From an uncultured bacterium (lineage in GTDB: Bacteria > Actinomycetota > Acidimicrobiia > Spongiisociales > UBA5794): a DNA stretch of 64,000 nt. The stretch lies in the NCBI GenBank assembly GCA_963801165.1, contig CAWDDT010000005.1, forward strand, positions 96,001-160,000, written 5' to 3'. This document shows positions 6,842 through 33,986 of this stretch, piece by piece. Position 1 is the stretch's first letter, and every line of letters begins with the position of its first letter. A program made the position numbers and the translations under genes. Under the pieces are notes generated by a model. That model ran no database searches, was not told the DNA's origin, and worked only from the letters and a program-made list of their open reading frames with translations.

Positions 6842-7296
6842 GTGAACTAGTCGCAACACTGAGCGACCACGACTTCTTCCGGGGTATGAGCGAGGCCCAT
6901 CTGGCGAAGCTCGCCGGCGTCGCCACCGAGATCGAGGTCGAGGGTGACAAGGTCCTCTTCGGAGAGGGCGGCACCGCCGATGCGGCGTATGCCATCGTCT
7001 CCGGCTCGATTGCACTCGAGCTGAGCGTCGCCACCCGGCAACTCATCGTGCAAACGCTGCACGGCGGAGAGATGCTCGGATGGAGCTGGCTGTACCCGCC
7101 CTATCGGTGGTCTTTCAGCGCCGTCGCCAACGATCCGGTGCATCTGATCCGATTCGAGGCCGAGCAACTGCGCGATATGTTCGATAACGACTGCGCTCTC
7201 GGCTACGAGGTGATGAAGCGGTTCGCCGGGGTCATAACCAGCCGTCTGGCCGCAACTCGACTCCAACTGGTGGATTTTTATGGAAACGCTAACTGA
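6838..7296 (+). CDS. Stand-alone cyclic-nucleotide-binding domain protein
   Basis: [16 protein letters not shown]...[19 protein letters not shown]; no HTH (152 aa); overlaps both neighbours. Confidence 0.85.
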
Positions 7297-8128: not shown

Positions 8129-8129
8129 G

Positions 8130-8921
<792 letters not shown>

Positions 8922-8923
8922 TC

Positions 8924-11821: not shown

Positions 11822-11880
11822 CTTCACTCCTGCTCTGCCTGGGACCAGACCCTCTGTAGATTACCTCACACTACTAGGCT

Positions 11881-11908
11881 ATGTTATCGTTAACGGGAGC
11901 GTTAACAT
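11881..11908. promoter_or_regulatory. Tandem LacI-type operator, copy 1
   Basis: ATGTTATCGTTAACGGGAGCGTTAACAT; its reverse complement matches the sites at 15892 and 15981 at 24/28 each. Confidence 0.75.
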
Positions 11909-11939
11909 GATGCTTGCTCGAGCGGAAGGGGAAACGGCG

Positions 11940-15919: not shown

Positions 15920-15980
15920 CGTGGCGCGCAGGGAAAACGCGACGAAGGCACCCGGCCAGGCTAGACATGTAGTTCACATG

Positions 15981-16008
15981 ATGTTAGCGTTCCCGTTAAC
16001 GATAACGG
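15981..16008. promoter_or_regulatory. Tandem LacI-type operator, copy 3
   Basis: ATGTTAGCGTTCCCGTTAACGATAACGG. Confidence 0.72.
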
Positions 16009-16112
16009 AGCTTGGCTCACGAGATACGGGGCGGCTCATTCCCACATCGCGTCGAGCGCGAAGACAACGGACATTCCCGAATCGGGATGAGGAAGATGGG
16101 AAGGAAGGTCAT

Positions 16113-17192
16113 ATGACACTAAGAAGAGACAAGCGGTTTGCGTTCGTGATTCTGCTTGCCGTTTTGGCTCTGGCAGCCGCCTCCTGCGGAGGAGATAGCA
16201 CAGAGTCATCGACAACCACCACGAGCGGAAACGCGGAAACCACCACGGCTGCCCCCGACACCGGGCAAGCAGCAGGCGCCGGGTTCTGTGCGAACACCCA
16301 CATAGTGTTCTTCCCCGGCGGGCCCGAAGGTGGCCCGTTCGCCACGGTGGTATACAACGGAGCAGTGAAGGCACAAGAAGTGCTCGGCGCTGACGTCGAC
16401 TACGTATGGTCCGACTGGGATCCGGAGAAGATGCTGACCCAGTTCCGTGAAGCCGTTGCGACCCACCCCGATGGCATCGCCATCATGGGTCATCCAGGCG
16501 ACGATGCCTTTGCTCCACTCGTTGACGAGGCAGAAGCAGCCGGCATCATCGTCACCAGCCAGAACACAACTCTGCCCACGATCGAGGCGAAGTACGCCAG
16601 CAACGGCTTCGGCTATGTGGGTGCCGAGTTGTATACGGCCGGTCACTCGCTTGGCGCCGAAGCGGTTGCCGAGTTCGGCCTGGCCGCCGGCGACCGGGCC
16701 ATGGTCTGGGGTCTGCTGGCGCAAGCCGGACGTGGCGAGCGGACAAAGGGCGTCATCGACGCACTCGAGGAAGCGGGCCTCACGGTCGACTACCTCGAGA
16801 TCGACGACGCTACCAACGCCGATGCCGCAGCAGGCACCGCGACGTTCGTTGGTTATGCCTCATCACATCCGGACGTCAAGTTGGTCGTCACCGATCACGG
16901 CGCCTTGACCGCCGCGCAGCAGACCTACTTCGAGGCTGCAGGTCTCGGACCGGATGATGTGTATGGCGCCGGCTTCGACCTGAGTGCATCGACGGTGGAA
17001 TCGATCAAGGCCGGCTGGACCGACCTGGTCATCGATCAGCAGCAGTATCTGCAGGGATTCTTCCCGATTCTGCAGATATGTTTGACCAACAACTATGCGT
17101 TCACCGGTCTCCATATCGACACCGGCGCGGGCTTCGCCAACGCCGGCAACGTCGATCTGCTCGCCGACCTGGTGACACAGCAGATCAGGTAA
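16113..17192 (+). CDS. Monosaccharide ABC transporter substrate-binding lipoprotein
   Basis: Lipobox LAAASC, Thr-rich linker, RbsB-like fold (PDGIAIMGHPGD, IDQQQYLQG). Confidence 0.9.
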   Translation: MTLRRDKRFAFVILLAVLALAAASCGGDSTESSTTTTSGNAETTTAAPDTGQAAGAGFCANTHIVFFPGGPEGGPFATVVYNGAVKAQEVLGADVDYVWSDWDPEKMLTQFREAVATHPDGIAIMGHPGDDAFAPLVDEAEAAGIIVTSQNTTLPTIEAKYASNGFGYVGAELYTAGHSLGAEAVAEFGLAAGDRAMVWGLLAQAGRGERTKGVIDALEEAGLTVDYLEIDDATNADAAAGTATFVGYASSHPDVKLVVTDHGALTAAQQTYFEAAGLGPDDVYGAGFDLSASTVESIKAGWTDLVIDQQQYLQGFFPILQICLTNNYAFTGLHIDTGAGFANAGNVDLLADLVTQQIR

Positions 17193-17235
17193 CAACGGCT
17201 CGGCTCGATTGCGGCCGGGACAGAAGAGCGAAAGG

Positions 17236-18084
17236 ATGTTTGGACAGATGTCTGATAAGGATGCTGGGATAGACCCGGCGACTCCGCGCCTCGAGCTGCG
17301 CGGAGTCAACAAGCAGTTTGCCGGAGTGCAAGCACTGTCCGACATCAACTTCCGTCTCGGCCGCAACGAGATCGTCGGTCTCATCGGCGACAACGGCGCC
17401 GGTAAGTCGACGATGATCAAGCACATTTGCGGCTACCACTCCCCCGACAGCGGCGAGATCTTGTTCGACGGGGTTCCGGTACACAACCTCACCGTCGAGC
17501 GCGCTCGCGAGCTCGGGGTGGCGGCCGTCTATCAGGAAAGAGCACTGGCCGACCTACAGACCCTGTGGCGCAACATCTTCATAGGTCAGGAAATCCAGAC
17601 CCGCTTTGGATTTCTGGACGTGCGCAAGATGCGACGTGAGACCCACAAACTCATGCTCGAGTCGATGGGATTCACCTCGACCGCGGTCACTCCCGAGTCG
17701 GTCGTCAAGAACTTCTCGGGTGGCGAGAAACAAGGCATCGCGATCACCCGGGCACTCTATTTCGACGCCGACATCCTCATCCTCGATGAGCCGGCCGTCG
17801 GGCTTTCGATCAAAGAGACCGACAAGCTGCTCCAGTTCATCCAGTCGATCAAGAAAGCCGGGAAAGCGGCGATCCTGATCGATCACAACATATTCCACGT
17901 CTACGAAGTCGCAGACCGGATCGTGGTGCTTGATCGAGGCAAGATTGCCGGTCGTTTCCGGCCGAAGCACCGCAACGTGATAGAGCTGACCGAGATCATG
18001 CGCGAGATAGCCGAGACAGGTCACTCGTCCGTACCGGACGACCCGTACGAAGAGTCGGTGTCTGATACGGAGGAGACGGCATGA
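17236..18084 (+). CDS. Sugar ABC transporter ATP-binding protein (single NBD)
   Basis: Walker A GDNGAGKST, FSGGEKQ, ILDEP. Confidence 0.93.
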   Translation: MFGQMSDKDAGIDPATPRLELRGVNKQFAGVQALSDINFRLGRNEIVGLIGDNGAGKSTMIKHICGYHSPDSGEILFDGVPVHNLTVERARELGVAAVYQERALADLQTLWRNIFIGQEIQTRFGFLDVRKMRRETHKLMLESMGFTSTAVTPESVVKNFSGGEKQGIAITRALYFDADILILDEPAVGLSIKETDKLLQFIQSIKKAGKAAILIDHNIFHVYEVADRIVVLDRGKIAGRFRPKHRNVIELTEIMREIAETGHSSVPDDPYEESVSDTEETA

Positions 18085-19115
18085 ATGGCTCGATGACCGA
18101 CGCCGACCAGGCTGCCCTCGACGAGGCGGCGTGGGGTCGCGGGGTCTCCCTCCTACACGATCCGAAGCGCTTTGCTAGCACCTATGCGGGCCAGCTCGGG
18201 ATAACCGGAGCGTTTCTGCTGCTCTGGATCGCGTTTCTGGTCACGGCTCCGGACACATTCACGCACATTGAGATCTATGCCGCGTTTGCTGCGACTATCC
18301 CTCTCTTCGGTATCGTCGCGATGCCGCTCACCATGGTGGTGACCGCGGGTGAGATCGACCTGTCCTTTCCTTCGACTTATGCGCTCGGCATGGTCGGATT
18401 CGTGCTGACATGGGAACACACGGGCAACGTCACGCTGGCGATCGCAGTCGCTCTTCTAATCGGTGCCGTCGCCGGGCTGATCAATGCCTTCGTCATCGTC
18501 CAGATCGGGGTACCGGCGCTCGTGGCTACCATCGGCACCCTCTTCTTCTTCCGGGGCCTGTCGCTGGTAGTGATCGGCGGCAGGAACATCACTCTGATAG
18601 ACACCCGGCCCTCGATTCTCTTCCGGCTGTTCGTCGGGGAGCTATACGGGATTCCGATGCAGTTCTTCTGGCTGCTGCTAGCGGCCGTGGCCACCTGGTT
18701 CCTTCTCAATCGTCACAAGTACGGCGCCGCCCTCTACGTCATCGGCGACAACGCCGAGACGGCCGAGCTCCAGGGCATAAAGACAAAACAGGTGCGTCTC
18801 ATCCTGTTCATCCTCGTTGGAGTTGCCGCCGCGTTCTCCGGGATCCTGTCGAGCCTGTTCATCGTCTCTTTCTTCCCGTCGGTCGGCGATGGTCAGCTGC
18901 TACCAGCCCTGGCTGCTGTGTTCGTTGGAGGCACGTCGGTCTTTGGCGGCAAGGGCACCGTGTGGGGAACCTTGCTCGGCGCCTTCATGATCGGAACCAT
19001 CAACGCCGGGATTGTCGCCGCCGGTCTCACCGGGTTCTACACCCAGCTCATCTACGGTGCCGTCATCGTCGTGTCGGTCTCCATCCACGCGATGGTGCAG
19101 CGACGTTTCGGGTGA
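18081..19115 (+). CDS. Sugar ABC transporter permease (RbsC type)
   Basis: GEIDLS, YVIGDN..AELQGI, AAVFVGGTS..GGKGTVWGT. Confidence 0.93.
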   Translation: MNGSMTDADQAALDEAAWGRGVSLLHDPKRFASTYAGQLGITGAFLLLWIAFLVTAPDTFTHIEIYAAFAATIPLFGIVAMPLTMVVTAGEIDLSFPSTYALGMVGFVLTWEHTGNVTLAIAVALLIGAVAGLINAFVIVQIGVPALVATIGTLFFFRGLSLVVIGGRNITLIDTRPSILFRLFVGELYGIPMQFFWLLLAAVATWFLLNRHKYGAALYVIGDNAETAELQGIKTKQVRLILFILVGVAAAFSGILSSLFIVSFFPSVGDGQLLPALAAVFVGGTSVFGGKGTVWGTLLGAFMIGTINAGIVAAGLTGFYTQLIYGAVIVVSVSIHAMVQRRFG

Positions 19116-19116
19116 T

Positions 19117-19938
19117 CTAGGCCACAACCGCCCCGGGTCCCACCAGGTGAACGGGGATCCCAAGCTTCTCCAACGAGACGACCAACTCGGCGGGCGCGGC
19201 CGCGTCCGTGATGACGGCATCGATCCGATCGGTTCGGCAGAAGGTCGCCACCGCCGCCCGGCCCCACTTGGTATGGTCGACGATCGCCACGACCCGGCGC
19301 GCCGTGGCGACCATGGATCGCTTGAGCTGGGCCTCTTCCTCCATGGAGTCGGACAGCCCCGACTCGATCGTGAAGCCGGCGGCACCGACAAACGCGGTCT
19401 GAACGTTGACCTTGCGGAACATCGCTCCACCGAGATGACCCAGCAGCGAGAGCGCCTCGGGCCGGAGACGCCCGCCCGGCATGAGTACAACGATCCCGGG
19501 ATGACTGGCAAGCTCCGCGGCGATCCTGATGCCGTTGGTGACCACGGTGAGCGCCCGCCAGCCGTCACGATCGCCCAGGTGACGAGCAACGTATAGGGCG
19601 GTCGTGCTGGCGTCGAGAGCGATGCCTTCGCCGTCTACCACCAGACCTGCGGCGAACTCGCCGATCTGTGATTTCTCCTCCCGCTGCAGCAGTTCGCGGA
19701 CGTCGAAGGCGAGCTCAGGCCGGTTGCGTTCGACCGCGATCGCCCCTCCGTGCGTCCGCACCAGGCGCCGCTCCGACTCGAGAAGAAGGAGGTCCTTGCG
19801 GATCGTCACGGCCGACACGCCGAACCGGGCTGCCAGATCCGACACCCGGGCCCGACCCTCCACCTCGACGAGGGCCGCTATCTGCTGCTGCCGCTCCTCG
19901 GCAAACACGCTATCGGATTGTCCTGCAGTTGTGGCCAT
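19117..19938 (-). CDS. DeoR/GlpR-family transcriptional regulator
   Basis: EERQQQI...FGVSAVTIRKDL...RTHGGA, LDASTT, VVTNG, VDHTKWG. Confidence 0.93.
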   Translation of the reverse strand: MATTAGQSDSVFAEERQQQIAALVEVEGRARVSDLAARFGVSAVTIRKDLLLLESERRLVRTHGGAIAVERNRPELAFDVRELLQREEKSQIGEFAAGLVVDGEGIALDASTTALYVARHLGDRDGWRALTVVTNGIRIAAELASHPGIVVLMPGGRLRPEALSLLGHLGGAMFRKVNVQTAFVGAAGFTIESGLSDSMEEEAQLKRSMVATARRVVAIVDHTKWGRAAVATFCRTDRIDAVITDAAAPAELVVSLEKLGIPVHLVGPGAVVA

Positions 19939-19948
19939 GTCGCGCACC

Positions 19949-21676
19949 CTAGCCGGAGGATTGTTTATCGACTTCGAGGCCATCACGCCTCCCGGCGTCG
20001 CGCAGCAGAGCCTCTTCAGCGGCCCTGGTCCAACGTCCACCGTCTAGCGCCGCCGCCACCGCAGGCACACGGTCCTGGAGCCGGGCAAGCGAGGTGAGCC
20101 CGAGGTTCGGGAGCGACGGGTAAACGATGATCTTGCCCGACGAAGTGCGAGCCTCGATGGCGGCCATGGCGTCGGCAAAGCCGGCGAATCCCGTCACCAT
20201 GTCCAACGAGATGTTGGTGTCGAGCTGGCCGCTCTCCACCTTCCGGAGGACGGCCTTCATGTCGTCGATCTTCGAGCCGCTGGTGCCGACGAAGTAGCAG
20301 CCGTTGGCGACGTACCGGTTCAAGTCGATCTCGGCCCGGGTTCCGACGGCGAAGCCGGCGAAGATGTTGATCCGGCCGTGCCTGCCCGCAAGAGCGAGTG
20401 ACCGGGCAACGAGTGCCGGCGCGGGCACCAGCAAGGCCACATAGCTGAACCCGGCTTCGAGCTGGGTGGTCGCGCTGTTCACAACCGTAAGGGCGACGTT
20501 GCGTTCGGCGGCGAGCGGCGCGGCCAGGTGCTCGAGGTGGGCGAGACGGGAATCATCGACGTCGACGGCGGCCACCGTGAGGTCCTGCCAGCCGCCCGAG
20601 ATGGAGCGAACGACATGCATCGAGCCCATCGGGCCTGCGGCGCCGATGACCGCGACCCGATCGCCGTCGCAAAGCTCGCCGTTTGCCGGAATTTCGCCGT
20701 AACCGTTCGCCGCCGAACCGGACGAGGTACCGGTCCAGCGGGTCAGGTCGTAGTGGATCCGACCCACGTCAACGGAGACCGGCCGGTCGATCAGCCGGCC
20801 GCCGGTGACGATGTCGATCACGCCGTACGGAGCCAACAGATCCTGAAGCTTCTCGATGACATTCGCTCTGGTCCCGAAGTACACGACGTCGTCGAAGGTC
20901 TGGGCGGGCAGCTCGTCGAGGCCAGCAGCTGCGGTTGCGGGCAAGGCGCCACTCTCGACCGCCGCGCCGGCGGCGAGGACAGTGGTGACCGACGCCGGTG
21001 GGCTAGCGGCCAAGAGTGTGCCAAGGCCATCGACAACGTGACCATCGTCCGCCACCACAAGAAGGCGACCACCGGCGAGAAGGTGGTTGCGTTCCTTGTA
21101 GGCATAGGCGGCTTCGACACAGGCCCAGGGCTCGACGAGCGCGATCGCGGAAGCGCTTGGTCCGTCACCAACCGGCAGCAGGAACCGCTCTCCAGTCTCG
21201 GGCTCCATGATGACCCGCTCGTCGAGCAGCACGTACTCCTGGAGCCCGCCTTCGAAGTTGTAGCCGAAAGCCGCGTTGGACACGGCGGTCGGTAGGTGCC
21301 GGTAGTCGGTCTCGACGAGCACACGCTCGCCCACCTCGTGGTGGCGCACCTCGTCGCCGACGGCGACGATCCGGCCCACCGCCTCGTGACCGGGAACTGT
21401 GGGCTTGGTGCCGGGGCAATACGAAGGGATCTCGGCCAGCACCCCTGCCGGTAGACCGGAGCGGACCTCACTCTTGCGCGGGTGGCTGGTGTAGGCGTGG
21501 AGGAGCTTGGTGTCCGAGAAACAGATCCCGCACGCCTCGACTTTGACGAGGATCTGGGTGGGTCCCACCGTCGGCACCGGCTTGGCACGGTTGTGGACGA
21601 TGTCGTTTGGACCGACGAACTGAATGGCGTGCTCGGTCTCTGGGATGTCGGGGGCACTCGCCCGCACTGTGCTCAC
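19949..21676 (-). CDS. Zn-dependent medium-chain dehydrogenase, L-sorbose-1-phosphate reductase-like, elongated (575 aa)
   Basis: CGICFSD and PGHE catalytic Zn ligands, GYNFEGGLQEY, EPWACV, GAAGPMG nucleotide loop, GTSGS. Confidence 0.8.
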   Translation of the reverse strand: MSTVRASAPDIPETEHAIQFVGPNDIVHNRAKPVPTVGPTQILVKVEACGICFSDTKLLHAYTSHPRKSEVRSGLPAGVLAEIPSYCPGTKPTVPGHEAVGRIVAVGDEVRHHEVGERVLVETDYRHLPTAVSNAAFGYNFEGGLQEYVLLDERVIMEPETGERFLLPVGDGPSASAIALVEPWACVEAAYAYKERNHLLAGGRLLVVADDGHVVDGLGTLLAASPPASVTTVLAAGAAVESGALPATAAAGLDELPAQTFDDVVYFGTRANVIEKLQDLLAPYGVIDIVTGGRLIDRPVSVDVGRIHYDLTRWTGTSSGSAANGYGEIPANGELCDGDRVAVIGAAGPMGSMHVVRSISGGWQDLTVAAVDVDDSRLAHLEHLAAPLAAERNVALTVVNSATTQLEAGFSYVALLVPAPALVARSLALAGRHGRINIFAGFAVGTRAEIDLNRYVANGCYFVGTSGSKIDDMKAVLRKVESGQLDTNISLDMVTGFAGFADAMAAIEARTSSGKIIVYPSLPNLGLTSLARLQDRVPAVAAALDGGRWTRAAEEALLRDAGRRDGLEVDKQSSG

Positions 21677-21689
21677 ATTGAACCTCCGG

Positions 21690-23741
21690 TTAGCTGAGCA
21701 TCACCTGGCCACCGGTCACAGGTATGGCCTGGCCGGTCTCGTAGCGTTGCGCCACGACGTAGTAGATGGCCTCCATCACATCTGCCGGGGTACAGCCGCG
21801 GCCCATCGGGACCTTCGCCTCGTAGGCGTGGCGCACGTCCTCGATGGTCTTGGCCCCGGGCACTTTGCCCTCGCGCAGGTACTGGACAAAGAGCCCGCTC
21901 TCCGGGTCGGACCAAAGCGGGCCGTCGAGAAAGTTGCCCGGGCAGATCGCGTTGACCTTGATGCCGTCGCCAACCAACTCGAGTGCAAATGACTGGGTCA
22001 GGCCGATACCGCCGAACTTGCTCCCGGCGTAGGCGCTGTTGCGACTCGATCCGACCAGACCCGACTTCGAGTTGATCTCGATGATGTCGCCCCAGTAGTC
22101 GGGCTTGGTGCGGTGCTGCCGGGCGAGGATCGGGGCGCCGTTGCGGACGCACACAAAGAAACCGCGGTAGTTGACCCGCGTGACGGCATCGAACTCGGCT
22201 ACCGGGAGAGACGTAACACCGCCGGCCTTCAGGATGCCGGCATTGGAGATTATGAGATCGAAACCGCCGAAGCGACGGACGACTTCGTCGAAGCCGGCCG
22301 CCACCGACGCGTCGTCGGTCACGTCAACCGCCAGGGCCATGGCCCTTCCCATGCCGGAGCCGGCCGCAAGAGCCTTCGCCTCGGATTCCGCTTGGGCCGC
22401 GTTGAGATCCGCAAGCACCACGTGCGCCCCTTGGGCGACGAGGTCGCCGGCGATGGCCAATCCAAACCCCTGGGCGGCGCCTGTGACGACGGCGACCATG
22501 CGATCGGCGCGCCCCGGCCGGGCCGATCCCGCGGCGACCCGGCGGCGATCCTCCCCGGCTTCCCGGAGCTCGATGAACTTGCGCTCGTCCTCGGCGAGGG
22601 GTCGGATGCCGCCGAGCCCGGCGGCCAGTGTCGCCACCCGGACTGCATCGAGGTAGACGTCACGCACCACCTCGGCCCGGCCGATCGACGATCCCGCGGC
22701 GAAGAGACCCAGGTTGGGAACCACAACAACAGCGGGCTTGTAGCCGTGATCGCGTTCGAAGTCCTCGATGGCGGCTAGGACATCTGCGGCGAGATCACCG
22801 GCATCGAGGGTTCCGTCTGGACGCGGCTGGACCGGCTCGAGTATCAGCGGACATGATCCGGCGTAGACGATCTGGTCGGGGGTCAGCGGTCCCCGGGTGA
22901 GCAGCTTGTCGCCTGTAACGGGATGCTCGATCCGGGCGGCAAGAGAGCTGCCGTCGAAAGTGACTATCTCGAGTCGCGCACCGGTGGCGAGGGCGGCCCG
23001 TAGCGTGGGCCCGATGATGCGGACTGCCGCGGAGGCGACCGCGGGTTCCAGCGCCGGCTCGGCCCTACCCGTCTCCGCATTTCCGAGCCGATCACCTATG
23101 GCGCCGACGATCCTGCTGGAAATGCGGTCGATGTCGTCCGGGCTATCAGCAGCGACGATGAGCCCATGGTTCTGGAGCAGGAGTGCCACCGGCTCCGAAA
23201 CGCCGGTCCCGGCCTCGTGCTCACGCAACATCGCCCGGATCCGCCGGGCCAGGGGGAGACCGGGATTGGTGTACGGGATCCAGAGAACCTCGTCGCCGAA
23301 CAGCTCGGCGGCGAGATCTCGACCCCGGCTGCTGCAGGTCAGTGCGTTGATCGTGATCGGGTGGGTGTGCAGCACGTACCGCTGCGGGAGGAGGGCGTGG
23401 AAGAGGAACTCGCCCGAGAGGCGCCGGCCGTCACCGGGCCCGATCCCTGCCGCGACGGCCACCGCAATGGCCTGGTCGGTGTCGCCGGCGGGACCGGGCC
23501 GCTCCGGGGCATCGAGTAGGTCCAGCAGGGGCCGCAGCTCCAGACCGATGAAATCCTCGACCGTCAGGGTGGACAGCGGTGCTCCGCTCGGCTTGATGTA
23601 CAGCACACCGTCCGCCTTGACCGAGCTGTTGCCGATAACGGCCCGCGATAACTCCGGATCGAGGCCGTAACGGTGGGAAACCTCGACGATGGCAGCCAGC
23701 GCATGCGGCAGAGGGTTCTTGCTCATGGTCTGCTCGCTCAC
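21690..23741 (-). CDS. Fusion of class II aldolase/adducin domain and SDR (sorbitol-6-phosphate dehydrogenase-like)
   Basis: N-terminal GNSSVK, IKPSG, HTHP, LQNHG, TPDQIVY; C-terminal TGAAQGFG, NAG, NSKSG..GS..NSAYAGSKFGG. Confidence 0.85.
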   Translation of the reverse strand: MSEQTMSKNPLPHALAAIVEVSHRYGLDPELSRAVIGNSSVKADGVLYIKPSGAPLSTLTVEDFIGLELRPLLDLLDAPERPGPAGDTDQAIAVAVAAGIGPGDGRRLSGEFLFHALLPQRYVLHTHPITINALTCSSRGRDLAAELFGDEVLWIPYTNPGLPLARRIRAMLREHEAGTGVSEPVALLLQNHGLIVAADSPDDIDRISSRIVGAIGDRLGNAETGRAEPALEPAVASAAVRIIGPTLRAALATGARLEIVTFDGSSLAARIEHPVTGDKLLTRGPLTPDQIVYAGSCPLILEPVQPRPDGTLDAGDLAADVLAAIEDFERDHGYKPAVVVVPNLGLFAAGSSIGRAEVVRDVYLDAVRVATLAAGLGGIRPLAEDERKFIELREAGEDRRRVAAGSARPGRADRMVAVVTGAAQGFGLAIAGDLVAQGAHVVLADLNAAQAESEAKALAAGSGMGRAMALAVDVTDDASVAAGFDEVVRRFGGFDLIISNAGILKAGGVTSLPVAEFDAVTRVNYRGFFVCVRNGAPILARQHRTKPDYWGDIIEINSKSGLVGSSRNSAYAGSKFGGIGLTQSFALELVGDGIKVNAICPGNFLDGPLWSDPESGLFVQYLREGKVPGAKTIEDVRHAYEAKVPMGRGCTPADVMEAIYYVVAQRYETGQAIPVTGGQVMLS

Positions 23742-24988
23742 GCCACCACCGCCGTGCTCTGTGCGCTCGCAATCACTTGCTCCCCGAGCTCGCGGAACCA
23801 GCGGATCCGCGTCTCACCGTCGGTGAACCCGGTGGCGAGCTGCCCCCCGGCGTCGACGTAGCCGGGCCGGTCTGTCTGGCGCAGATGTTGATGGGCCGCG
23901 ATCACGCAGGTTGCTTCCCAGAATGTCGTTCGGGCCATGTCCGACGGCGCGACCCCGCCCCGGCAGGCCGGCGTCAGGGGGATCATGCGCTGGGTGTTGT
24001 GCTCGGTGCCGGCCAGCACCAGTATCCCGGCCTCACGAAGCACGGATACGTATCGATCTACCGTCTCAGGGGCGTTGCGGGCCGGAATCAGCTCGGCGCA
24101 GTAGACGCCCCGATCGAGCAGCGCCTGAGCCAGCGCCACCGGCGGGTCCTCGAAGGGGCACACCGGTTCCGCGCCGTCGGCGAGGATGGGATAACAGGGA
24201 ATCCCGTCCAGCTCCAGCACGAGCCGATAGGCGTCATCGAAAGATACCTCGGCGTCCGGTACGAAGGCGGGCCGGCCGGCCTTCATGAGCTTGGAGCGGA
24301 TGGCGTTCTGAAGAGCGATCGGGTCGGTGACGATGGTCGGGTCCGCGGCAGATCCCAGCAACGCCGCCAGCACGGTCCCGCGCTCCCCGGGATCAAATTG
24401 CGCGTACACGCTCTCCTGGAGGGCACGGGCGAGATGGCGCTCCTGGAGCGAGACCCATCCGGCGGGGACACCGCTCCTCCTCGCCACATCGCCAACGATG
24501 TTCTCGATGGTGGGCGGCTGGTCGATACCGGCCGCGAGCCCGAGATCGGTCAGCCGGGCCGCCATCGCGTTCATTCGCTTCTCACTCGAAGCGCGGATCT
24601 TGTCCAGGAGGCGTGTCGCCACCAGGCCCGGGGCCCTGTAGCCTGCCATTGCCTTGCCGCACATGTAGGTGCGGCCCGGGTTATCCGGATCGTTCACCAG
24701 AACGCCTTCGGCCCGCAGATCTTCCTGGAGGGTGATGATCTCGGTGCCGAAGAGCGGAGCGATGCGAGCGGCCGCACACGCCCGGGCGAAACGGTCATAG
24801 ATGCTGAAATCGAAGTAGTTGGAGGCTCCGACCGCGACCACGCCTTCGTCTCGGGCACGGTTCACAACGGCCTCCACGTCCTCGAACGCCGAAAAGTTGG
24901 GCGGCAGGTGCACGTGCGCATTGACGGGCCTCGGACCCGGTTCCCGGTCGATGGAGTGTGAACTATTGTCGAGGGCGGTGCGTGTCAC
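23738..24988 (-). CDS. PHP-fold metallohydrolase of unknown function
   Basis: NAHVHLPPNFS, FGTEII, NDPDNPGRTYMCGK, ERHLARA, ELIPARN, GTEHNT. Confidence 0.75.
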   Translation of the reverse strand: MTRTALDNSSHSIDREPGPRPVNAHVHLPPNFSAFEDVEAVVNRARDEGVVAVGASNYFDFSIYDRFARACAAARIAPLFGTEIITLQEDLRAEGVLVNDPDNPGRTYMCGKAMAGYRAPGLVATRLLDKIRASSEKRMNAMAARLTDLGLAAGIDQPPTIENIVGDVARRSGVPAGWVSLQERHLARALQESVYAQFDPGERGTVLAALLGSAADPTIVTDPIALQNAIRSKLMKAGRPAFVPDAEVSFDDAYRLVLELDGIPCYPILADGAEPVCPFEDPPVALAQALLDRGVYCAELIPARNAPETVDRYVSVLREAGILVLAGTEHNTQRMIPLTPACRGGVAPSDMARTTFWEATCVIAAHQHLRQTDRPGYVDAGGQLATGFTDGETRIRWFRELGEQVIASAQSTAVVA

Positions 24989-25191
24989 GGGCCGCAGCTC
25001 CGGTCAGGGTCTCGCCGGCAACGTCTTCGGAGCGACACCGGCTGGCTTTCGACTATTTACGATTCGTTACTATTGTCTTATACTACGACATGAATTTGAC
25101 GGTCACAACCACCGAATCGAAAGAATATGAAATCGCTCTCCCCGACCCGGAAACGGTCCGGGAACGGCTATCGACCCCATCGAGGTGAGAA

Positions 25192-27498
25192 ATGATGGCG
25201 ACGGAGACTGCATATCGGAGCGACACCCGGCCCGGCTTTGCACCGTTCGAGGTGTCGCTGGGCTCGATTGGAGGCTTCGTCTACACGGGCGATCTCAGCT
25301 CGGAGCTCGGTGCCGGCCGCCTCACCCCCGCGTCGACACTTGATCTGCTCGACGACATGCTCGCGATCCGTGAGCTCGAAGAGATGATCGTCCGTCTCCG
25401 CTCGGGTGGCTACGACCCGCTACCCGGCTACGACTACCGGGGCCCCACCCACGTCTCCATCGGCCAGGAAGCGAGCGCCGTGGGGGCCTCGAGCGTCCTC
25501 CGCCTCGATGACCATGTCACCAGCAGCCACCGCGGACACGGCGACGCGATCGCAAAGGGTTTCTCAGCGATGCGGGCGATGACGGACGATCAGCTGCGGG
25601 CGCGAGTACCCGGCGCGAGTGCAAACAGCCATGACGACCTGCTGGCGGGTGCTCTCGAAGAACATGTGTACCGGGTAATCGCCGAGCTGTTCGGCAAGGA
25701 AGAGGGATACTGCAAGGGCCGCGGTGGGGGCATGCACATCGGTGACTTCTCCACCGGTCACCTGGGCGCCAATGCCATCGTGGGTGGCAGTGTGCCAATC
25801 GCAACGGGTGCGGCGATGGCTCTGCGTTACCAGGGCTCCGACCGCGTTGTGTGCTGCTTTGCCGGTGATGGAGCCTACGCAAACGGCGTCGTGCTCGAAT
25901 CCCTCAACTGGGCCGTTCAGGAGCAATGGACAAACCACCTGGCCGGCGACCACGCCGGCGGGTTGCCCGTCATCTTCTTCGTCCAAAACAACCATTACGG
26001 CATGACCCACCGCACCGATGACGAGGTCATGGGCGTAAGCCATCTCGCCCGCCGCGGCGCCGGCTTCGCCGAGAACAACATGCACGCCGAGACGGTGAAC
26101 GGTATGGACGTTCTGGCGGTTCGCGACGCGGTCACCCGAGCTGTGGCTCTGTGTCGTGAAGGCGAGGGTCCCGTCCTCATCGAGGCGAGCACATACCGCT
26201 ACTACGGGCACTCTCTCTCGGATCCGCGCAACGAGTATCGGACCCGGGAAGAGGAGGCTGCCTGGCGTGCAGTCGATCCAATCGAGCATCTCAAGAGACA
26301 GCTCCAAGAAACGGGCGCGGCCGACGAAGCCACGATTGCCGCGGTTGTGGCCAATGCCAGGGATCGGAACGCCCGCGCCGCTCTGCGCGCTTCACAGGCC
26401 ACCGATCCTGATCCGGCCGACGTCACCCGCTACCTGTTCACCGACACTGCCGCGGACGTGGTGCCCGAACCTGACCGGGTGGTTGCCACCCTGGCGGACC
26501 CCCCGGTGGCCGCCCGCGGCCCGGACGGCGAGATCAGCTACAAGGATGCCCTCCGCGATGCCCTGACCGAGGAGATGCTGCGCGACCGGCGCGTCATTGC
26601 CTACGGGGAGGACATAGCCGAGTATGGCGGTGCCTTCAAGCTCACCAAGGGGCTTCTGGAGACATTCGGCCGACAGCGCATCTTCAACACCCCGATCTCC
26701 GAAGCATGTATCTGCGGGACCGCGGTCGGTGCCTCGATGGTCGGGCTACGGCCGGTCGTCGAGTTGATGTACATGGATTTCGCTCTCATGGCCTCGGACC
26801 AGATCGCCAACCAGGCGGCCAAGTGGCACTACATGTCGGGGGCGCAGACCGAGGTGCCGCTGGTAATTCGCGCTTCTGTCGGCGCCGGCAAGGGCTACGG
26901 AGGCCAGCATTCCCAGTCGCTCGAGAGCGTCTTCACCCACATCCCCGGCATCTACGTCCTGTATCCGGCAACGCCTGGCGATGCCAAGGGCCTTCTCAAG
27001 AGCGCGATCAGGGACAACAACCCGGTTCTGTTTGTCGAGAGCCAGGGCCTGTATGCGACCAAGGGATTCGTCCCGGAGGGTGAGGTCCTGACGCCGATCG
27101 GCGTCGCCCGCGTCGCACGGGAGGGCTCGGACGTCACCATCGTGGCCTGGGGCCCGGCCGTCGTCGACGCCATGAAGGCAGCCGATCGCCTGGCTGCCGA
27201 GAGAAGCATCTCGGCCGAGGTCATCGACCTGCGCAGCCTCTTCCCGCTGGACATGGAAACCGTATTGAACTCGATCGCCAAGACGGGGCGCGGTGTCGTT
27301 GCCACGCAGGCGGTCCTCACCGGCAGCTTCGTCAACGAGATCGTGGCTCGCATCCAGTTCGAGGCATTCGACGAGCTAGATGCCCCCATCGCCCGCGTTG
27401 GTGCCGCTTTCGGCATCAGCCCCCAGGCCGAGGGACTCGAGCGGGCCTTCCTGCCCGACGCCACGACCATCTTCGACGCGGCTGCCGGCCTCCTGTGA
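25192..27498 (+). CDS. TPP-dependent dehydrogenase E1, alpha+beta fusion (acetoin/2-oxoacid dehydrogenase family)
   Basis: HVSIGQEA, SHRGHG, GRGGGMH, GDGA...NN TPP motif, YRYYGHSLSD; beta half YGEDI, NTPISE, GGQHSQ, EVIDLRSL. Confidence 0.9.
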   Translation: MMATETAYRSDTRPGFAPFEVSLGSIGGFVYTGDLSSELGAGRLTPASTLDLLDDMLAIRELEEMIVRLRSGGYDPLPGYDYRGPTHVSIGQEASAVGASSVLRLDDHVTSSHRGHGDAIAKGFSAMRAMTDDQLRARVPGASANSHDDLLAGALEEHVYRVIAELFGKEEGYCKGRGGGMHIGDFSTGHLGANAIVGGSVPIATGAAMALRYQGSDRVVCCFAGDGAYANGVVLESLNWAVQEQWTNHLAGDHAGGLPVIFFVQNNHYGMTHRTDDEVMGVSHLARRGAGFAENNMHAETVNGMDVLAVRDAVTRAVALCREGEGPVLIEASTYRYYGHSLSDPRNEYRTREEEAAWRAVDPIEHLKRQLQETGAADEATIAAVVANARDRNARAALRASQATDPDPADVTRYLFTDTAADVVPEPDRVVATLADPPVAARGPDGEISYKDALRDALTEEMLRDRRVIAYGEDIAEYGGAFKLTKGLLETFGRQRIFNTPISEACICGTAVGASMVGLRPVVELMYMDFALMASDQIANQAAKWHYMSGAQTEVPLVIRASVGAGKGYGGQHSQSLESVFTHIPGIYVLYPATPGDAKGLLKSAIRDNNPVLFVESQGLYATKGFVPEGEVLTPIGVARVAREGSDVTIVAWGPAVVDAMKAADRLAAERSISAEVIDLRSLFPLDMETVLNSIAKTGRGVVATQAVLTGSFVNEIVARIQFEAFDELDAPIARVGAAFGISPQAEGLERAFLPDATTIFDAAAGLL

Positions 27499-27533
27499 GA
27501 TCCAAAGAGTTGAGCTAGAGCTGAGGAGTACCG

Positions 27534-28841
27534 ATGGCGCATCCGATCCTGATGCCGAAGCCGGGCCAGATGACCGAGGAGTGCACGATCGTCGCCTGGA
27601 ACAAGAAGCCGGGCGACCCGGTCCACCGGGGCGACATCCTCTTCGAGATCGAGACCGACAAGTCGGACATGGACGTGGAGGCGTTCGAAGAAGGTGTCCT
27701 TTTGAAGACGTACTTCGAGGAGGGAGACACGGTCCCGGTGAACAGCGTGGTGGCCTATGTCGGCGAGGCGGGCGAAGAAGTGCCCGACGTGGCCCCGTCG
27801 GCGCCCGCCGCGATCGAGCCCTCCGCCACGCCACTACCGCCGGGTCCATCGCCGGATCTCACCGGCGCCCCCGTTGCGACCGCGGCCGTCGCTCCTCCTG
27901 TGGCCGCGGTCGCCCCACCCCTGTCCACCGCAACCTCGAGTCGGGAAGATCGGCTGCGCATCAGCCCGCGTGCCAGCAGGCTCGCTGCCAGCACCGGCAT
28001 CGACCCGCGCACGATCTCCGGCACGGGCCCCGAAGGCCGCATCACCGAGCGCGATGTGCAGGCCGCACTCGACACCCGCTCCTCGGGCCAGCCGAGCGCG
28101 ACGCCGGCACCCTTTCCCGCCCACATCCCACCGGCGGTCGTCAGTGAAGACGAGGAAGGTCCCCGGGCCATGAGCCGCATGCGGCAGGTGATCGCCGAGC
28201 GGTTGACGTACTCGGCGACAACGGTTCCGCACTTCACCATGACCGTCAACGTGGATATGACCAGCGTCCTGACTCTCCGTACCGAGCTGAAAACCACCGG
28301 CACCCAGTTGAGCCTCACCGACTTCATCCTGGCAGCGACAGCGCAAACCCTCGCCGAGTTCCCGGAGGTCAACTCGCGCACCGACGGGGCTTCCGTGTGG
28401 ATCCGGAACCGGGTCCATCTCGGCCTTGCCGTTTCTGTGCCCAACGGGCTGGTCGTGCCGGTAATCCGTGACGCCGATCGGCTCTCCTTGACCGAGCTCC
28501 ATGATCGGGCAGGTGCGGTCGCGGTGGCGGCCCGGGAGGGAACCCTCTCACCAGACGACATGACCGGCAGCACCTTCACCGTCTCCAACTTGGGGATGTT
28601 CGGCGTCGACGAGTTCACCGCGATCATCAATCCCGGAGAGTCGGCCATATTGGCCGTGGCCAGCGTCGTGCCCACCGCGGTAGCGATCGGCGACGGGCTG
28701 GCTGTACGGCAGGTCATGAAGCTGACTCTCTCTGCCGATCACCGGATCATCGATGGCGAGCTGGCTGCCCGTTTTCTCAGCTCCCTCCGGCGCCGGCTCA
28801 CCGACGTCGAAGCCTTCCGTCTAGACGCACTCAACTCTTAG
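27534..28841 (+). CDS. Dihydrolipoamide acyltransferase E2
   Basis: Lipoyl motif EIETDK, peripheral-subunit-binding domain (ISPRASRLA...GTGPEGRI), TFTVSNLG, catalytic DHRIIDG. Confidence 0.93.
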   Translation: MAHPILMPKPGQMTEECTIVAWNKKPGDPVHRGDILFEIETDKSDMDVEAFEEGVLLKTYFEEGDTVPVNSVVAYVGEAGEEVPDVAPSAPAAIEPSATPLPPGPSPDLTGAPVATAAVAPPVAAVAPPLSTATSSREDRLRISPRASRLAASTGIDPRTISGTGPEGRITERDVQAALDTRSSGQPSATPAPFPAHIPPAVVSEDEEGPRAMSRMRQVIAERLTYSATTVPHFTMTVNVDMTSVLTLRTELKTTGTQLSLTDFILAATAQTLAEFPEVNSRTDGASVWIRNRVHLGLAVSVPNGLVVPVIRDADRLSLTELHDRAGAVAVAAREGTLSPDDMTGSTFTVSNLGMFGVDEFTAIINPGESAILAVASVVPTAVAIGDGLAVRQVMKLTLSADHRIIDGELAARFLSSLRRRLTDVEAFRLDALNS

Positions 28842-28854
28842 GATGGCCCGGGGT

Positions 28855-29178
28855 TCACTCCACCTCGCCCTCGTCGAACTCGATGTCGTAGAGCGCCGCG
28901 CCGAGTGTCTTGCCGTGGCGGTCCAGGTAGAGCGATGTGTTCACCGTGTCGCCGGGGTGCCGCCTGCACACGAACAGAACAGTGGCGATCTTGGGAAGCT
29001 CGTGCCTCGCCTCGACACCGGCGATACGCCCGTCCAGGTGCCGAGTGGCGACCTCGCTGGTGAGACGTTCGGCCAGCAACTGGTAAGCCTCCTGGTCATG
29101 GCAGGTGACCGAGATGGTGGTAAGCGGACCCTTGTCACCGGTGCGGACGTGGGCGATGTCACGGAGCAACCTGCTCAC
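28855..29178 (-). CDS. AtuA-related small protein (C-terminal domain type)
   Basis: LRDIAHVRTGDKG...SLYLDRHGKTL; GTG overlaps the upstream TGA. Confidence 0.8.
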   Translation of the reverse strand: MSRLLRDIAHVRTGDKGPLTTISVTCHDQEAYQLLAERLTSEVATRHLDGRIAGVEARHELPKIATVLFVCRRHPGDTVNTSLYLDRHGKTLGAALYDIEFDEGEVE

Positions 29179-30494
29179 ACCGGTACCCCCGGAGTGACGG
29201 AGACCTGCGGCGTGACGGCATCCCGTGCGACCAGGGTCGACACGATCCCGATCGTCTCCTCGATGCGGGTGCGCACACCGCCTCCACCGGCGGGACCGGA
29301 GGTGTATAGCGCCAGCACCTCCTCGGCCACCCGCTCGGCGGCGACCCTGTCGGTGACCCGGGCGGCGATCCGGACCCGACACCCCGGGGCGGACCACCGG
29401 TCGGTACCGAGATCGAGAACCTCCGTCTTGGCGACCTCGAGCCTCAGCTCGATACCGCCGGGGAGACGGTCCCTGACCAGCTCGCACGCCAGTCTCCCCC
29501 GTTCAACGGCCCCCCGACCCGCGTAGGAGATCTCGCCTTCGACGGTGCAGCCTGCTCGATACCCAACGCTCACCTTCAGCTGCTCGGGACGGCTGCTCCC
29601 CCGCGCCCCGTCGACTCGTACTCGATCGTCTCCCTGATCGGCGACATCGACATTGGAAAAGTCGGCGATCACATCAGGAGTTACGTACGCATGTGGGTCG
29701 GTGATCTCGTACATCAGCTGCTCGATCACCGTGTCCCTGGTGACCATCCCGCCGGTGTCGTTCAGCTTGGTGACGACCGCCGAACCGTCGGCTGCAACCT
29801 CGGCGAGTGGATACCCGACATCGGCGAGGCCGGGCACCTCCCGGAGCGGCGGGTCGGCGAAGTAGCCGCCGGAGACCTGGGGACCGCACTCGAGCAGATG
29901 ACCGATCACCGTGCCCCGAGCCATGAGATCGAAATCGCCGCCGTCCCATTGGTGCGCGAGCACGAGGGGGGCGAGAAACAGGGACGGGTCGGCGACGCGA
30001 CCGGTCAAGACCACTTGGGCGTCGGTCCGCAGTGCTCCGAGTAGATGCTCTGCACCGAGGTAGGCGTTGGCGGACACGATCTCACCGTGCGCCTCCAGGG
30101 GCAGGCCGTCCTCAATGGCGGGCGCATCGGGATCGATGAGTGTCAGCACATCGTCACCGGTCAACGCCGCTACCCGAACGGCGATGCCCAGCTCACGTGC
30201 GATCCCGGCGGCCACCCGGGCCGCCCCCTCGGGGTTGGCGGCCCCCATGTTGGAGATGAGCCGCGTCTGGCCCCTCGCCAGAACGGGGAGGAGTTGCCGC
30301 ATTCGTTTCCTCAGCAGCGGGTCGAACCCGGCGTCCGGGTCGGCGAGACGCCGCAACTGGGCATCGGCGATGGTGCGCTCAGCGAGACATTCCAGCACGA
30401 GGAAATCGAGCTCACCCCGCTCGAGCAGGTCGAGCGCCGGCGGGAGCCGATCTCCCGAAAAGCCAGCCCCACAGCCGATTCTCACGTGCGTCAC
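29175..30494 (-). CDS. Acyclic terpene utilisation AtuA-family (DUF1446) protein
   Basis: RIGCGAGFSGDR, ECLAERT, NMGAANP, SANAYLG, TGRVADPSL, GHLLECG, EQLMYEI.DP..Y.TPDV, GPAGGGG. Confidence 0.9.
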   Translation of the reverse strand: MTHVRIGCGAGFSGDRLPPALDLLERGELDFLVLECLAERTIADAQLRRLADPDAGFDPLLRKRMRQLLPVLARGQTRLISNMGAANPEGAARVAAGIARELGIAVRVAALTGDDVLTLIDPDAPAIEDGLPLEAHGEIVSANAYLGAEHLLGALRTDAQVVLTGRVADPSLFLAPLVLAHQWDGGDFDLMARGTVIGHLLECGPQVSGGYFADPPLREVPGLADVGYPLAEVAADGSAVVTKLNDTGGMVTRDTVIEQLMYEITDPHAYVTPDVIADFSNVDVADQGDDRVRVDGARGSSRPEQLKVSVGYRAGCTVEGEISYAGRGAVERGRLACELVRDRLPGGIELRLEVAKTEVLDLGTDRWSAPGCRVRIAARVTDRVAAERVAEEVLALYTSGPAGGGGVRTRIEETIGIVSTLVARDAVTPQVSVTPGVPV

Positions 30495-30555
30495 GCCCGC
30501 CACTGTACCTCGCCGCGGGCTACGCTCCCACCGAGTCATTGAGAGGAGAACCGCG

Positions 30556-31463: not shown

Positions 31464-32123
31464 ATGAGCCGAACAAAGCTGGAGCTGATCTTGCTCGGAG
31501 TCCTGCTGCAACGGCCGCAGACAGGCTATGACCTGACCGGATTCATGGACAAGGCCGGCCGATTCATGCGCGACAACACGTCGATGACCCAGGTGTATCG
31601 ATCCCTACGACAGATGGAAGAACTCGGCTGGCTCACCCACACCGTCGAGCCGAGACCGGGGGCGCAGGACGCCAAGCGCTACGCCGTCACCGACGAGGGT
31701 CACGACACCTTCATCCACTGGCTGAACGAGCCCTACCGCCCTTCGGAGCAGCCGGGTGGCGGAGCCTTCTTCACCCTGCTGCGCTTCCGCGCCACATATA
31801 TAGGAGTCGACTCCGTACTGGACCTCCTCGACACCGAGATCGCATATCGCAAGACGCAGATCGCAACGAACCGGTACCGCGACCGGACCGAATGGGTCGA
31901 CACGACCGTGTCCTTCGACGATGAACTGGCCGGCGCCGTCATGGACTGGATCCACCATCGAGGCGCCGACCGCATGGACCGACATCTCGAGTCCTGCCTC
32001 GAGCTGAGGGCAGCTCTAGCGCATGGCGAGCTGCCACTCGACAGTTGCCCCAATCCGCTGCTCCGCACCGGCGAGTACCGCGGTCCCGAGCTCACCCCCG
32101 CCATGGAGAGGAGCGCCCGATGA
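31464..32123 (+). CDS. PadR-family transcriptional regulator
   Basis: LLGVLLQRPQTGYDL, QVYRSLRQMEELGW, KRYAVTDEG. Confidence 0.9.
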   Translation: MSRTKLELILLGVLLQRPQTGYDLTGFMDKAGRFMRDNTSMTQVYRSLRQMEELGWLTHTVEPRPGAQDAKRYAVTDEGHDTFIHWLNEPYRPSEQPGGGAFFTLLRFRATYIGVDSVLDLLDTEIAYRKTQIATNRYRDRTEWVDTTVSFDDELAGAVMDWIHHRGADRMDRHLESCLELRAALAHGELPLDSCPNPLLRTGEYRGPELTPAMERSAR

Positions 32124-33886: not shown

Positions 33887-33986
33887 CTTATTGCCGCACC
33901 CCGGACGGCGCAGGTTCATCGTCACCACCGGTGACCGGACGGCGATACCCTCACCGCATCGAACGAGGGCGGATCGGGAGTTGTGA

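Follow-up and report, generated by a model that had tools for sequence, protein, structure and literature searches.

What a bacterium does with a complex of the 2-oxoacid dehydrogenase type encoded back to back with a sugar operon is the question raised by a block of six genes from an uncultured member of the Acidimicrobiia (GenBank assembly GCA_963801165.1). The block occupies positions 19117-28841 of the window, by which we mean the whole 64,000-nucleotide stretch that was analysed (contig CAWDDT010000005.1, positions 96,001 to 160,000), and its genes, four on the minus strand and two on the plus strand, were confirmed at their coordinates. The minus-strand genes are transcribed in the order PHP-fold protein, class II aldolase fused to a short-chain dehydrogenase/reductase (SDR), long zinc-dependent medium-chain dehydrogenase/reductase (MDR), and DeoR-family regulator. 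The plus-strand genes encode a thiamine pyrophosphate (TPP)-dependent E1 with fused alpha and beta halves and a dihydrolipoyl acyltransferase E2. L-Fucose and L-rhamnose count among the major sugars in the glycans of plants, algae, and mucins, and the way in which uncultured bacteria of peat, soil, and water dispose of the toxic three-carbon product of these sugars, lactaldehyde, is understood only in part. With a probability of roughly 0.4, we propose that the block is a DeoR-controlled lower pathway, predicted to split a 6-deoxy-L-ketohexose 1-phosphate into dihydroxyacetone phosphate (DHAP) and pyruvate, the latter being passed by the atypical E1/E2 to acetyl-CoA.

Conservation of the Gene Set

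The PHP, aldolase-SDR, and MDR genes form an inseparable trio, which is almost always accompanied by this subfamily of fused E1 and its E2. Loci anchored on the PHP gene were compared as the best 80 of 457 confirmed relatives; a locus in which the aldolase-SDR or MDR gene is adjacent to the PHP gene is called a core locus. Such adjacency was found in 67 of the 80 loci, and both genes adjoined PHP in 59. Among 301 genomes from the class to which G002 belongs, the three genes of the trio occurred in exactly the same 19 genomes, and an E1 orthologue was present in 18 of those 19 versus 16 of the 282 others. E1 or E2 was located within a 10-kb flank in 39 of the 67 core loci (both in 32), which included all 13 core loci of the Actinomycetota, and in 0 of the 13 non-core loci. 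Among five genomes whose PHP locus has no flanking E1, four hold an E1 of 77-83% identity, in two cases just beyond the flank. The adjacency of the trio and E1/E2 is kept across four phyla in at least four gene orders: divergent, on the same strand with E2-E3-E1 downstream, upstream of a regulator-transporter pair of DeoR and an ATP-binding cassette (ABC) system, and split in a planctomycete. These counts bear out the notion that the gene set is a real, conserved unit.

Metagenome-assembled genomes (MAGs) assigned by their submitters to five phyla carry the trio; two further phyla have PHP homologues. Nine loci of the Armatimonadota (L068, L069, L071-L074, L076, L078, and L080), together with L047, for which no phylum is on record, carry PHP homologues alone (45-51% identity). 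No conserved neighbour accompanies these homologues, and the fusion, the MDR, and E1/E2 are all missing from the surrounding 10 kb; lacking a conserved neighbour, the homologues are uninformative on the PHP role.

Families and Structures of the Block Proteins

The fusion carries an Aldolase_II domain at residues 18-203, followed by adh_short at 416-604. It scored 283.8 bits against the model of the rhamnose enzyme RhaEW (TIGR02632, cut-off 567.75) and did not reach the cut-off of any of the bifunctional aldolase/SDR models that it matched; judged from its sequence, it appears to be a paralogue of RhaEW. The SDR half is nearest to sorbitol-6-phosphate dehydrogenase (NF009050, 231.2 vs 307; PDB 5o3z, E 2.1e-48). 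Residues H125, H127, H192, E111, and S558-Y571-K575 are invariant among 16 sequences. The first four are presumably the zinc ligands, by analogy with FucA-type enzymes, and the histidine triad plus glutamate of class II aldolases and the Ser-Tyr-Lys of SDRs are thus intact. An OtnC-like assignment of the aldolase domain was discarded, as residues 1-404 matched bifunctional aldolase/SDR models only and not NF043034.

The MDR appears atypical, consisting of 575 residues in place of the usual approximately 340, with a modelled extra Rossmann-like domain of approximately 200 residues. Its AlphaFold2 model (mean predicted local distance difference test score, pLDDT, 70.7) contains Rossmann-like blocks at 200-320 and 340-465. 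C52, H97, E98, and E182, which are taken to be zinc ligands, and the GxxGxxG motif (GAAGPMG) are invariant in 18 orthologues. The top folds were L-threonine 3-dehydrogenase (5kia), RspB (4ilk), and butanediol dehydrogenase (6ie0) at E of about 1e-12, values close to those for ordinary alcohol dehydrogenases, and the best sequence match in the PDB had an E of 8e-9. The protein had been called SorE-like before, a name that finds no support: its best NCBIfam matches were Tdh (49.7 bits vs cut-off 380) and IolM (47 bits), both far below the cut-offs.

The PHP protein scored 24.1 bits against PF02811, below the cut-off of 26.4, and its family profile gave no significant match among PDB sequences (best E 0.92). 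The structure was more telling. Its AlphaFold2 model (pLDDT 85, predicted template modelling score 0.86) matched 3e0f in Foldseek with an E of 7.8e-10 and was superposed on 3o0f with a Z of 23.5 (281 aligned) and on RNase AM (9etk) with a Z of 23.2 (277 aligned), at a root-mean-square deviation of 3.0. H25-x-H27, E83, and E329-H330 are invariant, and the second-strand histidine of the fold aligns to an invariant N57 in a hidden Markov model alignment of low confidence (E 0.92). The TrpH/YciV phosphoesterases BAD_1165 (3e0f/3o0f), RNase AM (9etk), and Cv1693 (2yb1) share the same barrel and helical insert, at only 12-17% identity and in nucleotide or RNA processing rather than in the sugar-catabolism context seen here. 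On the strength of the model, the protein would represent an unnamed family with a TrpH/YciV-like barrel and helical insert. Of 8000 candidates that were scored, 1695 were homologues; among the 120 of them listed, most were unnamed and every name given by a source was "hypothetical protein", and the ESM Atlas returned unnamed or "DNA polymerase III family" clusters only. Of the earlier label "PHP hydrolase", the fold is upheld, and nothing beyond the fold is supported. The protein could be a metal-dependent hydrolase acting on a phosphate ester, or could assist C-C cleavage.

The regulator possesses both the DeoR helix-turn-helix domain (PF08220) and the C-terminal sensor domain (PF00455) and reached no NCBIfam equivalog cut-off, the best being AgaR (196.7 vs 260). 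In 23 of the 80 loci, a match with at least 50% query coverage and 60-76% identity adjoins the trio or the ABC transporter that goes with it; the number of loci with the family rises to 27 when weaker matches are included.

The fused E1 appears from its sequence to be an atypical member of the TPP-dependent dehydrogenases, belonging to a distinct subfamily. Its alpha half is below both equivalog cut-offs of the pyruvate dehydrogenase (PDH) type (TIGR03182, 267.4 vs 393.85; TIGR03181, 187.3 vs 411.35), while its beta half passes the PDH E1-beta subfamily NF006667 (354.1 vs 321), as does a paralogue on contig C7 (345.8). Module E1s of the Chloroflexota and Actinomycetota have in common three insertions in the alpha half, of about 9, 35-45, and 12 residues, which fall between the conserved motifs of E1alpha, and carry HR in place of YR; the three E1 paralogues of the window genome have neither. 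In a phylogenetic tree, 30 module E1s fell on one side of a branch with an SH-aLRT of 100, the outgroup being three long-branched rows only. The E2 consists of lipoyl, E3-binding, and catalytic domains and scored 324.3 bits against TIGR01349 (cut-off 445); IETDKS is read as its lipoyl-lysine motif and DHRIIDG as its catalytic motif. Among acetoin models, NF011457 matched the lipoyl end of E2 only (85.3 vs 307), and no E1-specific acetoin model appeared. A canonical PDH E1alpha/E1beta/E2 set is encoded elsewhere in the genome, where the E1alpha on contig C11 passes TIGR03181 (428.9 vs 411.35), so that the block E1/E2 is an extra complex. The sole E3 match of the genome is at C4:667899-669272. 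Hence, the module holds two unnamed families, the PHP-fold protein with over 1600 homologues and the long MDR, plus a distinct E1 subfamily.

Deoxy-Sugar Genes in Related Loci and in the Genome

The sequence-only reading had taken the substrate for a rare sugar or polyol and had stated that the genes match none of the rhamnose pathways. Neither view was supported by the comparison of loci, as the fusion is the RhaEW paralogue described above and the relatives carry deoxy-sugar genes next to it. RhaI was found in 26 of the 80 PHP-anchored loci, an FGGY kinase in 35, and a RhaD-like aldolase in 15; RhaI lies in the flank of 24 of the 67 core loci. This L-rhamnose isomerase exceeds its cut-off (TIGR02635, 550.8 vs 531.35), the kinase is rhamnulokinase-like (454.1 vs cut-off 527.95), and the aldolase scored 160.2 against a cut-off of 170. 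L-Fucose isomerase (FucI) was found in L001, L008, L025, and L033, and as a partial copy in L035, with 68-69% identity to the FucI of the window genome. The closest relative, L001, has both FucI and the kinase directly next to E2. Other conserved neighbours were a second MDR of 335 residues (MDR2), CUT2-type ABC transporters, DeoR or SorC regulators, and E3.

The window genome (98% complete, 5.6% contamination) encodes FucI (1034 bits, cut-off 775) and an FGGY kinase on contig C3, and neither RhaA nor RhaI was found in it. No stand-alone FucA or RhaD was present among its five class II aldolase-family genes, which are AraD, an UlaF-like epimerase, an aldolase-aminotransferase fusion, and two aldolase-SDR fusions. 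As FucI and the kinase are present without a stand-alone aldolase, the block is the likely sink for L-fuculose 1-phosphate here.

It is very improbable that the module serves another sugar or polyol and that its link to rhamnose and fucose is incidental. Such a role would accord with the lack of deoxy-sugar genes beside the block in the window, with the 16 of 67 core loci that have neither E1/E2 nor isomerase or kinase in their flanks, and with the resemblance of the MDR and MDR2 to polyol dehydrogenases and of the SDR half to sorbitol-6-phosphate dehydrogenase. However, RhaI, the rhamnulokinase-like kinase, the RhaD-like aldolase, and FucI are the only sugar-specific genes that were seen repeatedly by the trio, the homologues of the fusion are rhamnulose-1-phosphate aldolase fusions, and the genome has FucI and a kinase with no other candidate aldolase.

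Three further loci of the genome were noted. The second aldolase-SDR fusion (C9, approximately 296.6-306.6 kb; L081:4628-14610) passes NF006196 (912.9 vs 831) and is accompanied by an MtnA-like isomerase (436.6 vs 271), an MtnK-like kinase (393.7 vs 275), an LsrF-like thiolase/aldolase (332.7 vs 297), and the transporter genes of a sugar ABC system. The group resembles a variant cluster for salvaging or catabolising a 5-deoxy- or methylthio-pentose. The aldolase-aminotransferase fusion (C3, 74777-77080; L088:2778-5081) is a 767-residue protein joining a class II aldolase-family domain to a class III aminotransferase that resembles glutamate-1-semialdehyde aminomutase (264.4 bits). Approximately 12 kb from FucI, an UlaD-like decarboxylase, an L-ribulose-5-phosphate 3-epimerase, a 4-epimerase, and a gene resembling 2-keto-3-deoxygluconate kinase lie behind an ABC transporter (C3, 122284-125400; L087:3285-6401), which looks like a cluster of the L-ascorbate or L-xylulose type.

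Proposed Pathway and Its Alternatives

In the route that we tentatively favour, the window genome would use L-fucose, and its relatives L-rhamnose, L-fucose, or both. FucI and the FGGY kinase of contig C3 would supply L-fuculose 1-phosphate, the entry substrate and probably the effector of DeoR. The aldolase-type domain may then cleave the C3-C4 bond to release DHAP, and the methyl-bearing three-carbon half would be converted into pyruvate by two NAD-dependent steps. Of these, the MDR would oxidise the secondary alcohol of the CH3-CHOH group, acting on the intact sugar phosphate or, once this has been cleaved, on the three-carbon product, and the SDR would oxidise the aldehyde carbon as RhaW does. 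The product would finally be turned into acetyl-CoA and CO2 by the fused E1 and E2 together with the protein of the single E3 match, for a predicted net yield of DHAP + acetyl-CoA + CO2 + 3 NADH. If correct, this is a complete NAD-linked route from a deoxy-sugar phosphate to acetyl-CoA, worth adding to pathway reconstruction tools.

The dependence between the trio and the complex is one-sided. The expectation that E1/E2 are co-conserved with the PHP, SDR, and MDR genes stood in the direction from the trio to E1 (18 of 19 genomes) and failed in the reverse direction, where 16 of the 34 E1-positive genomes are without the trio, or 15 of 33 without the unpublished G850. Such one-sidedness fits a trio that feeds a complex having other feeders as well, and the pyruvate route is therefore favoured.

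Several points weigh against our proposal. In each of five E1-only genomes, the E2 catalytic domain matched 2-4 loci, of which one adjoins a module-type E1; the module complex is therefore extra there too, and the idea that it is the sole such complex in those genomes was dropped. The kinship of the genomes and the incompleteness of the MAGs make all of these counts descriptive. The fusion, being below all bifunctional cut-offs, need not act like RhaEW, and no zinc-dependent MDR is known to oxidise lactate. A housekeeping PDH could take the pyruvate, which leaves the near-obligate partnership with E1/E2 unexplained, and the insertions of the E1 alpha half, with its failed PDH cut-offs, argue for a substrate other than pyruvate. 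Where a RhaD-like aldolase stands beside the trio, as in 15 loci, one of the two aldolases is redundant. The PHP protein is without a role in the pyruvate scheme, and no fucose genes are located next to the block in the window.

An alternative that we consider unlikely is an acetoin-type cleavage of a ketol by E1/E2, giving a deoxy-sugar route free of lactaldehyde, lactate, and pyruvate. Here the MDR would oxidise the C5 hydroxyl of the 6-deoxy-ketohexose 1-phosphate to yield a methyl ketol, and E1/E2/E3 would cleave its C4-C5 bond into acetyl-CoA and a four-carbon aldehyde phosphate. The SDR would convert the latter into 3-oxo-tetronate 4-phosphate, which the class II aldolase-type domain would decarboxylate to DHAP. 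L-Fuculose 1-phosphate and L-rhamnulose 1-phosphate would converge on one product, since they differ at C4 only. Under this scheme, four of the five enzymes would act as members of their families usually do, which is more than in the pyruvate scheme. Threonine 3-dehydrogenase and butanediol dehydrogenase, near folds of the MDR, act on CH3-CHOH groups; a galactitol-1-phosphate 5-dehydrogenase model was among the matches of MDR2; and a 3-oxo-tetronate 4-phosphate decarboxylase of the class II aldolase family exists (NCBIfam NF043034). The inserted alpha half that fails the PDH cut-offs and the canonical PDH elsewhere in the genome point the same way. If true, this would be the first TPP/lipoate complex acting on a sugar-derived ketol, extending 2-oxoacid-dehydrogenase chemistry to sugar phosphates and carrying the methyl end of fucose or rhamnose straight to acetyl-CoA. 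However, the MDR, aldolase-SDR, and PHP genes are missing from the 16 E1-positive genomes mentioned above. A trio gene was found in 14 of 80 E1-anchored metagenome loci and in 0 of the 11 such loci having at least 7 kb on both sides, and the E1/E2 substrate should therefore be independent of the MDR. The aldolase domain matched bifunctional models and not NF043034, and no TPP/lipoate complex is known to act on a sugar phosphate. The cleavage into an acyl-CoA and an aldehyde put forward in the sequence-only reading is thus weakened by the one-sided link.

E1/E2 units without the trio have a regulator of their own, either a DeoR that is 33-36% identical to that of the window or a SorC. Some of them adjoin FucI, rha genes, transaldolase (11 loci), a split transketolase with a GntR/FCD regulator (approximately 8), or a PfkB kinase (6); examples are L110:13693-14808, L131:6131-8828, L153:6465-9044, and L102:5266-6207. 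Both this regulation with these neighbours and the 16 of 34 trio-less genomes would suit a PDH isozyme controlled by sugar phosphate, which stands beside the trio through shared regulation or co-transfer, with the trio being a RhaEW-like route to L-lactate. LutB/LutC-like genes at C9:357766-359584 could oxidise that lactate. PF01070 gave weak partial matches only, but given the LutB/LutC-like genes this offers no ground for rejecting a lactate route. We regard an isozyme as quite unlikely, given that E1 occurs in 18 of 19 trio genomes versus 16 of 282 others and that adjacency persists through at least four gene orders and four phyla. Moreover, E1 in the window, L001, and L002 has lost the regulator gene of its own and has a conserved spacer in common with the PHP operon, and the block is either there in full or missing in full. 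The pyruvate route is retained as our preferred, still tentative, proposal.

Comparison with Known Systems

The closest known system is the L-rhamnose pathway RhaI-RhaB-RhaEW. There, the products demonstrated for RhaEW (YuxG/Caur_2283) are DHAP and L-lactate (Rodionova et al. 2013, PMC3870299). The block and its relatives share with that pathway a class II aldolase-SDR fusion with intact catalytic motifs, a DeoR-type regulator, and a CUT2-type ABC transporter, and the relatives share RhaI and a rhamnulokinase-like kinase as well. They differ in the score of the fusion, which stays under all curated cut-offs (283.8 vs 567.75 for RhaEW), and the block fusion is only 26% identical to the second fusion of the genome that passes NF006196. 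Furthermore, the block fusion always occurs with the PHP-fold protein and the 575-residue MDR, and nearly always with the fused E1/E2, none of which is mentioned in the passages of PMC3870299 that were consulted.

The likeness to PDH with a heterotetrameric E1 lies in the TPP-binding E1 domains, the three-domain E2, the use of E3, and the beta half that passes its model. Unlike that enzyme, the block E1 has fused alpha and beta halves, with the three alpha insertions, HR for YR, and an alpha half below both equivalogs. Block-type E1/E2 also lie in sugar operons under DeoR or SorC, with a separate canonical PDH in the genome. Another system to be compared is the acetoin dehydrogenase system with butanediol dehydrogenase, AcoABCL/BdhA. 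As in that system, an MDR with the threonine/butanediol-dehydrogenase fold stands by E1 and E2 (and E3 in the relatives), and a 6-deoxy sugar is similar to butanediol at its methyl end. It differs in that no curated acetoin model was reached, that E1/E2 also occur without the MDR, and that the substrate would be a sugar phosphate.

A literature search gave no description of the gene set, subscription journals and supplements being outside its scope. PMC9007349 has 0 occurrences of "rhamnose" and does not describe the gene set. We rate the gene set as a variant of RhaEW-type deoxyhexose catabolism that is undescribed so far as searched.

Gene Arrangement and Origin of the Block

The features of the block and of the two genes that follow it are listed in Table 1.

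Table 1. Positions of the block genes, the divergent spacer, and the convergent downstream genes in the window.
Feature	Position	Strand	Remarks
DeoR-family regulator	19117..20040	-	last gene of minus-strand operon; PF00455 157 bits, PF08220 52.7 bits
Long Zn-MDR, 575 aa	19949..21676	-	ADH_N 59.2 bits, ADH_zinc_N_2 31.6 bits
Class II aldolase + SDR fusion, 683 aa	21690..23741	-	Aldolase_II 65.8 bits, adh_short 149.1 bits
PHP-fold protein, 416 aa	23738..24988	-	first gene of operon; PF02811 24.1 bits
Divergent spacer, 203 bp	24989..25191	.	between PHP operon and E1-E2
Fused E1 alpha-beta, 768 aa	25192..27498	+	E1_dh 189.8, Transket_pyr 148.1, Transketolase_C 106.1 bits
E2 dihydrolipoyl acyltransferase, 435 aa	27534..28841	+	2-oxoacid_dh 254.2, Biotin_lipoyl 58.3, E3_binding 46.7 bits
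AtuA-ferredoxin-like gene	28855-29172	-	convergent with E2
AtuA	29175-30539	-	convergent with E2

What had been noticed of the layout proved accurate in three respects. First, the four minus-strand genes are tightly coupled, with overlaps or gaps of at most 13 nt: PHP and aldolase-SDR overlap by 4 nt, aldolase-SDR and MDR are 13 nt apart, and MDR and DeoR overlap or lie a few nt apart, the probable start of DeoR being the ATG at 19983 with GGGAGG ahead of it. The gap between E1 and E2 is 35 nt. Second, the divergent region of approximately 200 bp is AT-rich, the 203-bp spacer having a GC content of 54.7% and its 105-bp core 41.9%, versus 66.4% for the cluster. Third, no kinase, phosphotransferase system, or E3 gene lies within 19117-28841, and the nearest kinase is the ribulokinase of the separate araBDA operon (11790-13610).

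A central part of the spacer, approximately 120 bp long, is alignable with the equivalent spacer of loci L001 and L002, and in the window and in both of these loci E1 stands without the regulator gene that precedes it in other loci. The spacer contains a 10-nt inverted repeat (25057-25066/25113-25122) and a sigma-70-like match at 25056-25084 (+), the only one in 18900-29400, which is not above chance (1 found vs 0.9 expected).

Upstream lie LacI, araB, araD, araA, and the genes of an ABC transporter, which form a true operon for L-arabinose (ribulokinase 594.7 vs cut-off 428; AraD 292.1 vs 257; AraA domains present). It was rejected as a part of the block, because it is convergent with the block and is kept in congeners that lack it. 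A 227-residue plus-strand ORF that comes after E2, at 28843-29526, is probably spurious; it has no family match and, lying opposite AtuA and the AtuA-ferredoxin-like gene, is probably an antisense artefact. AtuA and a HAD hydrolase downstream were not accepted as members either, since they are not conserved beside the module (AtuA in 0 of 80 loci).

No DNA match to 19117-28841 was obtained in 12 genomes of the same genus, though the flanks match, with DNA identities of 77-78% for araBDA, 94% for the ABC transporter, and 81% for AtuA. A syntenic contig of G678 reads LacI-araBDA-ABC-X-AtuA-PadR, with the block missing. Outside the window genome, the PHP protein turned up in none of 300 genomes sampled from the same class and none of 400 sampled from the same phylum. 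Because a 9.7-kb block is missing while its flanks match, gain or loss has affected the regulator, the trio, and E1/E2 together, and the module is seen to move, or to disappear, as a whole.

Neighbouring Genes

The ABC transporter between araA and the block (15921-19115) is 94-98.6% identical in protein sequence to that of the congener G680 (L170, contig C10), where it is located at a different position. The araB, araD, and araA products are approximately 83% identical to those of G678, and the genes are 77-78% identical in DNA in both G678 and G680. This pattern of identities suggests a recent exchange or rearrangement of the transporter.

Farther downstream, a likely sulfatase-maturase pair is encoded at 32045-35396: the sulfatase (PF00884, 119.4 bits) comes first, and after it stands a radical SAM/SPASM protein carrying a SEC-C motif at its C terminus. 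A 786-residue ORF at 31733-34093 (-) overlaps the sulfatase and has no family match. At the other side of the window, a FAD/NAD-binding Fe-S subunit, an Oxidored_q6 small subunit, and a NiFeSe_Hases large subunit are encoded at 7280-10228, and these three genes look like a soluble NiFe-hydrogenase module.

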